Assembly: GCF_003019035.1 (NCBI RefSeq)
Contig: NZ_CP027447.1
Reading direction: 5' to 3' (one strand)
Length of the DNA: 64,000 nt
From: Escherichia coli
Lineage (GTDB): Bacteria > Pseudomonadota > Gammaproteobacteria > Enterobacterales > Enterobacteriaceae
Shown here: one piece after another, positions 15,108 to 16,625 of the stretch
Layout of the letters: every line of letters begins with the position of its first letter
Numbering within the stretch: the first letter of the stretch is position 1
Made by a program: the position numbers and the translations under genes
The notes under the pieces: generated by a model
Told to the model about the DNA's origin: nothing
Databases searched by the model: none
The model's input: only the letters and a program-made list of their open reading frames with translations

Positions 15108-16625
15108 ATGTCAGTAGTTTTTGCAGATGGATGAGCAAACGGTCAATCGCACGATAGCTGACTGCCTCCTGCAAATGCTGACGTGTGATAATGTCAGACT
15201 GATCAATATCAGCAATGGTTCGTGCAACTTTCAATAACCGCTGCCAGGCACGAATCGATAACCCCAGATGGATCAGCGTTTCTTCCAGCCACTGCGCATC
15301 TTCGCTCTCAAGCTTGCAGAATTGGCGTATTTCCGGATTATCCAGCCAGGCGTTCAGTTTATTCTGCCGCTTAAATTGGCGCTCTCTGGCGGCCATTACA
15401 CGTTGTTTAACGGTGGTGCTGTTTTCTCCCTGCACTACCGTTTTACTCAAAATGCCGGGGGCGGTAATGGGATCTCTAGTGAGAGATCGAAGCGGTCGAG
15501 AAAGGGCCCCGAGAGCCGGTTGAGATAACGTAATGTCTGTTCTGGTGTGCAGCGGTTATGGTTTCCCTGATAATGTCCGGTAGGGCTGGGATTCATCGCC
15601 GCGACAAGCTGGAAACGGGCTGGATAGGTTATTTTTGCTCGTGTGCGTGAAAGATGGATCTGCCCGGATTCAATCGGCTCTCGCAAGGCATCCAGTGTAC
15701 GCCGTTCAAATTCAGGTAGCTCATCAAGAAAAAGCACGCCGTTATGCGCCAGCGAAATTTCACCTGGCCCTGGAATTGCACCACCGCCCACCATCGCAGT
15801 TAACGACGCACTGTGATGAGGTGAGCGGAATGGGCGCTGCCGCCATTGTTTTTGTACTGATTCAGCATTTACCAGACTTAATATCGCAGCGCTCTCCAGT
15901 GCCTCTTCATTGCTTAAATCTGGCAACAGGCCATTAATACGGCTGGCGAGCATTGTTTTACCTGTTCCCGGCGGCCCAATCAGTAAAAGGTTGTGCCCGC
16001 CAGCGGCGGTAATTTCCAGTCCTCGCTTTCCTTGCTCCTGACCGACAACATCACTGAGATCATGTTGTAGCGCCCGGGATACTGCATCAGTTGGTTTCGG
16101 GCGTTCGAGAGCGTGCTTACCCTCCAGAAACGCACAGACAGCCTGCAGATGATCGGCTATCAGGCATCCTTCACCGTTAATTAGCCCCACTTCATCCTCG
16201 TTATCTTTCGCGACGATAATTTTTCTGCCCGACTTAATGGCTTCAGTTGCACTGGAGATTGCGCCGGGAACGCCACGCAGAGCGCCTGTAAGCGCCAGTT
16301 CTCCGACTAATTCATATTCATCTAACTTATTGGCTGTAAGCTGTTCTGAGGCTGCCAGCAACGCAATGGCGATAGGTAAATCATATCGTCCCCCTTCTTT
16401 TGGCAGATCGGCTGGAGCAAGGTTGATGGTGATTTTTTTCGCCGGATATTCATATCCGCTATTGATAATGGCGCTGCGCACGCGATCGCGAGCTTCTTTT
16501 ACCGTTGTTTCTGGTAAGCCCACCATCGTTAAGCCTGGTAGACCTTTACTGATATGTACCTCAACAGTGATTGGGGGCGCATTTACTCCCAGGGCTGCGC
16601 GGGTATGAACAATTGACAGTGACAT
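15106..16625 (-). pseudogene. comM: Mg-chelatase-like AAA+ ATPase ComM/YifB, reading frame split by a 1 bp deletion near 15455-15459
   Basis: N-terminal 390 codons (from the ATG at 16625, [13 protein letters not shown]) end at a TGA at 15447-15449; the C-terminal 114 codons continue in another frame from 15450; the join is in the run GCCGGGGG. Confidence 0.8.

Follow-up and report, generated by a model that had tools for sequence, protein, structure and literature searches.

A one-base contraction of a C tract splits yifB (comM) in an Escherichia coli chromosome and is probably a real, recent mutation

The yifB locus of the chromosome described here is a pseudogene of the YifB/ComM family and not a working member of it. 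One base is missing from a run of C residues, the reading frame is shifted after codon 390, and the gene is read as two fragments. We consider it probable, from the comparisons presented below, that this lesion is a real and recent loss-of-function mutation. The stretch of DNA that was analysed, which we call the window, comprises 64,000 nucleotides and corresponds to the E. coli chromosome directly clockwise of the rbs operon. Its gene order was read from the annotation of collinear regions in strains GF131, ST648 and SCU-301. The left part contains rbsDACBKR, mdtD, yieP, an rRNA operon, hdfR, maoP, yifB, ilvLXGMEDA, ilvY and ilvC. This is followed by a 5-kb accessory island, ppiC, rep, gppA, rhlB, trxA, rho and the wec/rff cluster, and at the far end by yifK, tRNA genes, aslBA, hemYXDC and cyaA. 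Both the position of the split gene and its neighbors (hdfR and maoP on one side, ilvL, ilvX and ilvG on the other) match those of the annotated yifB of GF131, SCU-301 and ST648. The adjacent ilvG (17216-18862) is intact with 548 codons, in contrast to the frameshifted ilvG of K-12, and the variant of IlvG encoded in the window was found in 315 blocks of the sequence collection. The island between ilvC and ppiC (5.3 kb, approximately 26100-31400) encodes a GntR regulator, a sugar kinase, an RraA-family protein, a dehydrogenase resembling C-terminal-binding protein and an MFS transporter; the window shares it with GF131 and SCU-301, and ST648 lacks it.

The coordinates of the lesion, of the fragments and of the domains are collected in Table 1. 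On the plus strand the sequence at the lesion reads AAAATGCCGGGGGCGGTAATGG and on the coding (minus) strand CCGCCCCCGGCATTTTGAGT, exactly the join given by an initial annotation of this DNA, which had proposed that a single base lost from a C/G run divides yifB in two. In the intact allele the codons at this point are CCG CCC CCC GGC (Pro-Pro-Pro-Gly). The open reading frame that holds the N-terminal fragment extends on the minus strand over 15447..16655 and has 402 codons when counted from its first ATG and 392 when counted from position 16625, where RefSeq places the start (MSLSIV); the 390 codons assigned to this segment initially are corrected accordingly, and the 114 assigned to the C-terminal segment stand. 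The premature TGA overlaps the TTG (15448-15450) at which the C-terminal fragment begins, in the arrangement TTTTGA. No Shine-Dalgarno-like purine stretch is present in the 20 nucleotides upstream of this TTG (CCATTACCGCCCCCGGCATT), in agreement with the earlier suspicion that it is an unlikely true start. When one C is inserted, an open reading frame of 506 codons results, the approximate length that had been predicted, and its product is identical residue for residue to WP_000058979.1, the YifB of both SCU-301 and GF131. Alignment with intact orthologues had been suggested as a check, and alignment with SCU-301 gives a single gap in the C run with the nearby sequence otherwise identical. The locus therefore shows what is expected of a frameshift pseudogene: a one-base change in a mononucleotide run and an early stop, with no compensating indel.

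Table 1. Positions of the yifB and rffT lesions, of the gene fragments and of the YifB domains. Nucleotide positions refer to the window and residue numbers to the repaired YifB protein.
Feature	Position	Strand or molecule	Remark
Whole yifB pseudogene (comM, b3765 orthologue)	15106..16625	minus	1,520 nt vs 1,521 intact
yifB N-terminal fragment, 392 codons + TGA stop	15447..16625	minus	ORF list, profile match
yifB C-terminal fragment, 114 codons, other frame, TTG start	15106..15450	minus	ORF list, profile match
yifB lesion, C5 on coding strand (plus-strand G5) vs C6 in intact alleles	15457..15461	minus	
Premature TGA stop	15447..15449	minus	2 codons past frameshift (PPP-A-F-stop)
rffT/wecF lesion, G5 vs G6 in SCU-301	48982..48986	plus	
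rffT fragment, 119 codons	48658-49017	plus	gene 48658-49736
rffT fragment, 240 codons	49014-49736	plus	gene 48658-49736
PF13541 Lon-like ChlI domain	residues 21-142	repaired protein	kept in N fragment
PF01078 AAA+ core	residues 189-386	repaired protein	N fragment; Walker A GPPGTGKT, Walker B VLFLDE
PF13335 Mg_chelatase_C	residues 400-492	repaired protein	C fragment

The N-terminal fragment matches positions 1-391 of the 506 positions of the NCBIfam YifB equivalog NF007365 (E=5e-269, 892.9 bits against a cut-off of 530), and the C-terminal fragment matches positions 394-506 (E=1e-65), leaving only two positions of the profile uncovered. Because the fragments match consecutive parts of one equivalog profile, the split pattern is not a matter of chance open reading frames. 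Both by this profile and by its three-domain layout the gene belongs to the YifB family Mg chelatase-like AAA ATPases (NF007365 / TIGR00368), of which ComM is a member, and the solved ComM structure 8rxd can be aligned with the repaired protein from end to end (E=1e-141). In a working member one uninterrupted reading frame would encode all three domains; here the frameshift falls between PF01078 and PF13335, in the Pro-Pro-Pro-Gly linker, and no such frame is present. In Gram-negative bacteria that undergo natural transformation, branch migration is driven by ComM, a transformation-specific hexameric helicase (bioRxiv 10.1101/147660 / PMC6158740; PMC11612176), and E. coli comM (b3765) is among the orthologues of the Sxy/CRP-S competence regulon (PMC1635313). 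In the structure of Legionella ComM two residues contact the gamma-phosphate in trans, R316 and the arginine finger R463 (PMC11612176). R463 aligns with R459 of the E. coli protein, which is located in the C-terminal fragment, and the 392-residue product would therefore be without a catalytic residue of the inter-subunit ATP site. With a weak TTG start and no Shine-Dalgarno-like stretch ahead of it, the C-terminal fragment is probably untranslated. On these grounds the function of YifB has most likely been lost by truncation.

Comparison with close relatives places the lesion on a short branch. Among complete genomes, SCU-301 is the nearest to the window taken as a whole (99.85%) and GF131 comes next; IAI39 is 98.9% identical. 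For the haplotype around the run the best RefSeq matches are 99.9% identical and all carry C6. The combination of the window haplotype with C5 occurs in none of the 5,426 complete RefSeq E. coli genomes, which makes the allele of the window a singleton. Against GF131 and SCU-301 the gene shows no SNPs and one gap; against ST648, which has the same C5 run, it shows four SNPs, the nearest of them 297 and 374 bp from the run, in a region of about 0.6% divergence over 25 kb, the two sequences being identical between 15161 and 15830. Given no SNPs against C6 relatives and four against ST648, the C5 event of the window is, by haplotype, independent of that in the ST648 group, and the same counts led us to reject descent from the ST648 allele.

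Outside the rRNA operon, in about 59 kb, the window and SCU-301 differ by six changes only: substitutions at 7290, 36449 and 38959, G6-to-G5 losses at 15457 (yifB) and 48982 (rffT/wecF), and an 18-bp difference in a repeat in hemX. The change at 36449 lies in rhlB and is synonymous, so RhlB does not serve as a strain-specific handle. When these differences are polarised with GF131 and ST648, the branch of the window itself carries two transitions and two run contractions, and the SCU-301 side one substitution. Two frameshifts against two substitutions on one short branch is an unusual ratio for a normal lineage and weighs against the yifB lesion being real. The hemX repeat, a GGTGCA hexanucleotide at 59055, varies in copy number among close relatives, SCU-301 being longer than the window by 18 bp and ST648 by 30 bp, with GF131 equal to it.

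The window haplotype offers a second view of the fate of this gene. A metagenome scaffold (ENA ERZ28602249 scaffold_53, positions 2001-3191 of the piece examined) is identical to the window over 9.4 kb and has C6 at the lesion site. A different single base is missing from it at a distance of 50 bp (C4 to C3 at window position 15507), and this deletion gives YifB fragments of 382 and 109 amino acids and was seen in three datasets, including the Logan run SRR35107633. It would appear that yifB has been lost more than once in this haplotype, a pattern that fits relaxed selection. Of 24 long contigs examined among the 315 blocks with the IlvG variant of the window, 22 have an intact yifB.

A priori, the loss of one base from a C/G run may be a pseudogenizing mutation or a homopolymer miscall, and the initial annotation was right to pose these two alternatives. 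If the lesion were technical, the strain would truly carry C6 and an intact yifB of 506 codons, and the assembly would have dropped one base of a G/C homopolymer. Such a loss is the classic residual error of a long-read consensus, none of the 5,426 genomes has the allele on this haplotype, and the repaired protein is identical to that of the nearest relatives. The many scattered single carriers of C5 in other backgrounds would also suit a site that is both error-prone and mutation-prone. We nonetheless regard this explanation as unlikely. The two G6-to-G5 losses are the only single-base indels against SCU-301 in the ~59 kb outside the rRNA operon, and over the same span no other homopolymer differs, including a C7 run, a C8 run and 24 A/T runs of at least seven bases. 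Length-dependent miscalling is disfavored because it would strike the longer runs first, and those agree. What an artefact would bring, additional homopolymer errors that become commoner in longer runs, was thus not found. Within the rRNA operon it is SCU-301 that is full of indels and the window that is clean, which argues that the window is the better-polished of the two assemblies. The SCU-301 operon (13992-18763 of the piece examined, corresponding to 8600-13400 of the window) is set apart from that of the window by dozens of one-base indels, many of them at CCWGG-like motifs and in G runs, and looks like long-read consensus left unpolished within a repeat; these differences should not be taken as biology. 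The ST648 record has extra insertions of its own in G/C runs, G7 in thrP and C9 in a tRNA-Leu gene (window positions 52084 and 53809), and a frameshifted wecA. These insertions are shared by neither the window nor GF131 nor SCU-301 and are probably errors of that record.

Further evidence on this question comes from the companion lesion in rffT (wecF). The initial annotation had described it as the same kind of lesion as that in yifB and had taken the resemblance to raise the prior probability of an artefact. The likeness holds in that rffT has also undergone a G6-to-G5 loss, but it does not reach to descent, the yifB event of the window being independent of the one in the ST648 group, and the consequence drawn for the quality of the assembly is contradicted. 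A synonymous GGA-to-GGG change created the G6 run of rffT in this lineage, as seen in SCU-301, and the window then has G5. The G5 allele is absent from all 5,426 RefSeq complete genomes. The exact truncated RffT protein of 119 amino acids was found on 87 contigs, comprising one NCBI chromosome and 86 Logan run assemblies from at least two accession series, and runs that carry this strain include SRR28455203, SRR28455237, SRR28454693, SRR28454719, SRR27538773 and SRR27539014. Five contigs from these run assemblies are 100.000% identical to the window over 38658-53765, a span of 15.1 kb within which lie the SNP at 38959 that marks the strain, five G6 runs and the rffT lesion itself with its G5. 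The runs would consist of accurate short reads, as suggested by contigs of 10-22 kb in perfect agreement. Wherever it can be checked the assembly is exact, and the rffT frameshift truly belongs to a strain that many sequencing runs have sampled. The one further lesion of this type in the window is thereby confirmed independently, and this speaks for a genuine surplus of contracted runs on the branch and not for sloppy assembly. Since one of the 13 other G/C runs of at least six bases was truly contracted on the branch, a second real contraction would be far likelier than a lone consensus error in an assembly that is clean elsewhere. The persistence of a real rffT frameshift is unexpected, because a block at wecF should lead to accumulation of ECA lipid II; the rest of the ECA pathway is intact in the window.

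A comparable search for yifB itself was less discriminating. The 392-residue product is the same in the window and in ST648, so an index of exact proteins could not isolate the run assemblies of this strain; the best 24 of 1,801 matching blocks, chosen as the longest contigs, were examined, and none came from it. A pattern specific for the haplotype (G at 15160, a gap of 254 nucleotides and the G5 run) had no match in JGI metagenomes. Independent sequence data do support the C5 allele in other lineages and the rffT lesion in this strain.

The identical contraction is in fact present in approximately 66-70 of the 5,426 complete genomes. The 65 nucleotides around the run are matched exactly by 37 of them, a clonal group to which the strain named ST648 belongs and which comes from many laboratories, hosts and years. 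A 45-nucleotide core query with C5 detected about 42 genomes with a CCG variant and about 24 with a CCA variant, together ~1.2-1.3% of the total. About 98.7% of complete genomes are in frame at the tract, and more than 5,000 carry C6; one haplotype has C8 where C9 would be in frame. All ten carriers that were inspected have yifB annotated as "frameshifted", and the C5 allele is in this sense already known from RefSeq. The literature on yifB frameshifts yielded laboratory-evolution papers only and nothing on this allele. The exact 392-residue product occurs in the 1,801 blocks noted above, on at least 1,000 contigs from NCBI, ENA, JGI and Logan. Sixteen carriers fall into 12 yifB haplotype groups, and three groups contain several isolates that were sequenced independently: the ST648 group, E308/APEC-O117H42/NCTC9038, and PA45B/SCU-484. 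This distribution indicates that the contraction is a natural event that recurs and is inherited within several lineages. Several of the singleton carriers in other backgrounds come from what we take to be long-read-only projects, in which deletions in G/C runs typically persist as errors. Some of the recurrence may in that case be of technical origin, and the multi-isolate groups would be unaffected.

The frequency of C5 raises the further possibility that the allele is real but came in by recombination, on a short tract donated by, for example, an ST648-like strain with C5. Donors are common, and a tract of less than 670 bp would leave no trace, given the identity of ST648 and the window around the run. 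Such a tract would have to be confined entirely to this interval, no donor SNP having been co-transferred, and the second contraction on the branch, in rffT, has no donor among the 5,426 genomes, which favors local slippage as the common cause. We judge import to be very improbable. The idea that yifB still functions is, in our estimate, hardly to be credited at all. It might do so through a -1 ribosomal slip (CCC CCG, restoring PPPG), through re-initiation at the TTG to yield a two-piece enzyme, or through a reversible switch. The split falls exactly at a domain boundary with nearly the entire profile covered, the stop and the TTG overlap, the contraction recurs in many lineages, and tract length differs between the close relatives examined here (C5 in the window, C6 in SCU-301). 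On the other side, an in-frame C6 in more than 5,000 genomes shows that no conserved recoding signal is involved, the heptamer departs from the canonical X XXY YYZ pattern, the TTG lacks a Shine-Dalgarno sequence, and the other frameshift of this haplotype, at a distance of 50 bp, points to simple decay. Programmed frameshifting was accordingly rejected as the main reading, on the in-frame majority of genomes and the non-canonical heptamer. A phase-variable locus was likewise rejected: typical phase-variable tracts are longer than 5-6 nucleotides, and the second frameshift in this haplotype lies outside the tract.

The preferred reading is then a real mutation that arose locally. Replication slippage would have removed one C from the C6 tract of the Pro-Pro-Pro-Gly linker, on the short branch of this strain and apart from the ST648 group, with the shifted frame stopping two codons on. 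The resulting 392-residue product would keep the N-terminal Lon-like domain and the AAA+ core and would be without the C-terminal helical domain, which in the ComM hexamer supplies the arginine finger to the ATP site of the adjacent subunit. With that domain gone, we infer that the product cannot be an active helicase. The C-terminal fragment, having a TTG without a ribosome-binding site, would probably not be produced. In E. coli the tract is a hot spot at which natural frameshifts recur, and yifB would be dispensable because this species has no demonstrated natural transformation.

Two extensions of this scheme are worth stating, and we consider it unlikely that either is correct. In one, the C tract of yifB would be a favored and recurrent off-switch for ComM: at least a dozen lineages would have acquired the change independently, and every one of the 37 genomes sampled from the ST648 group has it. 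An advantage of losing ComM might be, for instance, that incoming DNA is no longer recombined, as has been proposed for Acinetobacter in which AbaR disrupts comM. In the other, the strain would be a mutator. Its two transitions and two G-run contractions resemble what a deficiency in mismatch repair produces; none of the repair genes is located in the window. A strain deficient in mismatch repair would in that case be circulating in the sampled community, with rffT, a normally maintained ECA gene, among its targets.

As a whole, these results suggest that the yifB lesion is most likely an ordinary gene loss of a kind already annotated elsewhere. The appropriate annotation of the split gene is a single frameshifted pseudogene, in line with RefSeq practice for this allele in other genomes, and neither two genes nor a novel short AAA+ protein. 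They also show that two similar homopolymer lesions need not imply a poor assembly, since one of them is independently reproduced. If the yifB lesion is real, the strain is without ComM, which has no known consequence in E. coli. The recurrence of the contraction is a modest curiosity for the study of how competence genes decay or are retained in enterobacteria.

The lesion may finally be set beside several known systems. The contingency genes of Haemophilus and Neisseria resemble yifB in that a one-base change in a G/C run recurs at one site across lineages, but the yifB tract is only 5-6 nucleotides long and the gene does not have a surface or restriction function. The ComM proteins of Vibrio cholerae, Acinetobacter baylyi and Legionella pneumophila are like the repaired YifB in domain layout, in their Walker motifs and in the position of the arginine finger; here, in contrast, the gene is interrupted, and E. 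coli has never been found to undergo natural transformation (PMC3330819). In Acinetobacter baumannii, AbaR-type resistance islands that disrupt comM represent likewise a natural route to the loss of ComM (PMC11441513). There, however, a mobile island has inserted into the gene and a selective benefit has been proposed (PMC11441513), whereas the window would have undergone a one-base slippage that bears no sign of selection. The closest parallel is the yifB pseudogene of the ST648 group (NZ_CP008697.1 FH07_RS00120; also MS6198, Ecol_881 and FDAARGOS_497), which has the identical C6-to-C5 change, the same fragments of 392 and 114 amino acids and the same genomic context. That allele is common to 37 genomes of another haplotype, whereas the allele of the window is a singleton that arose separately.
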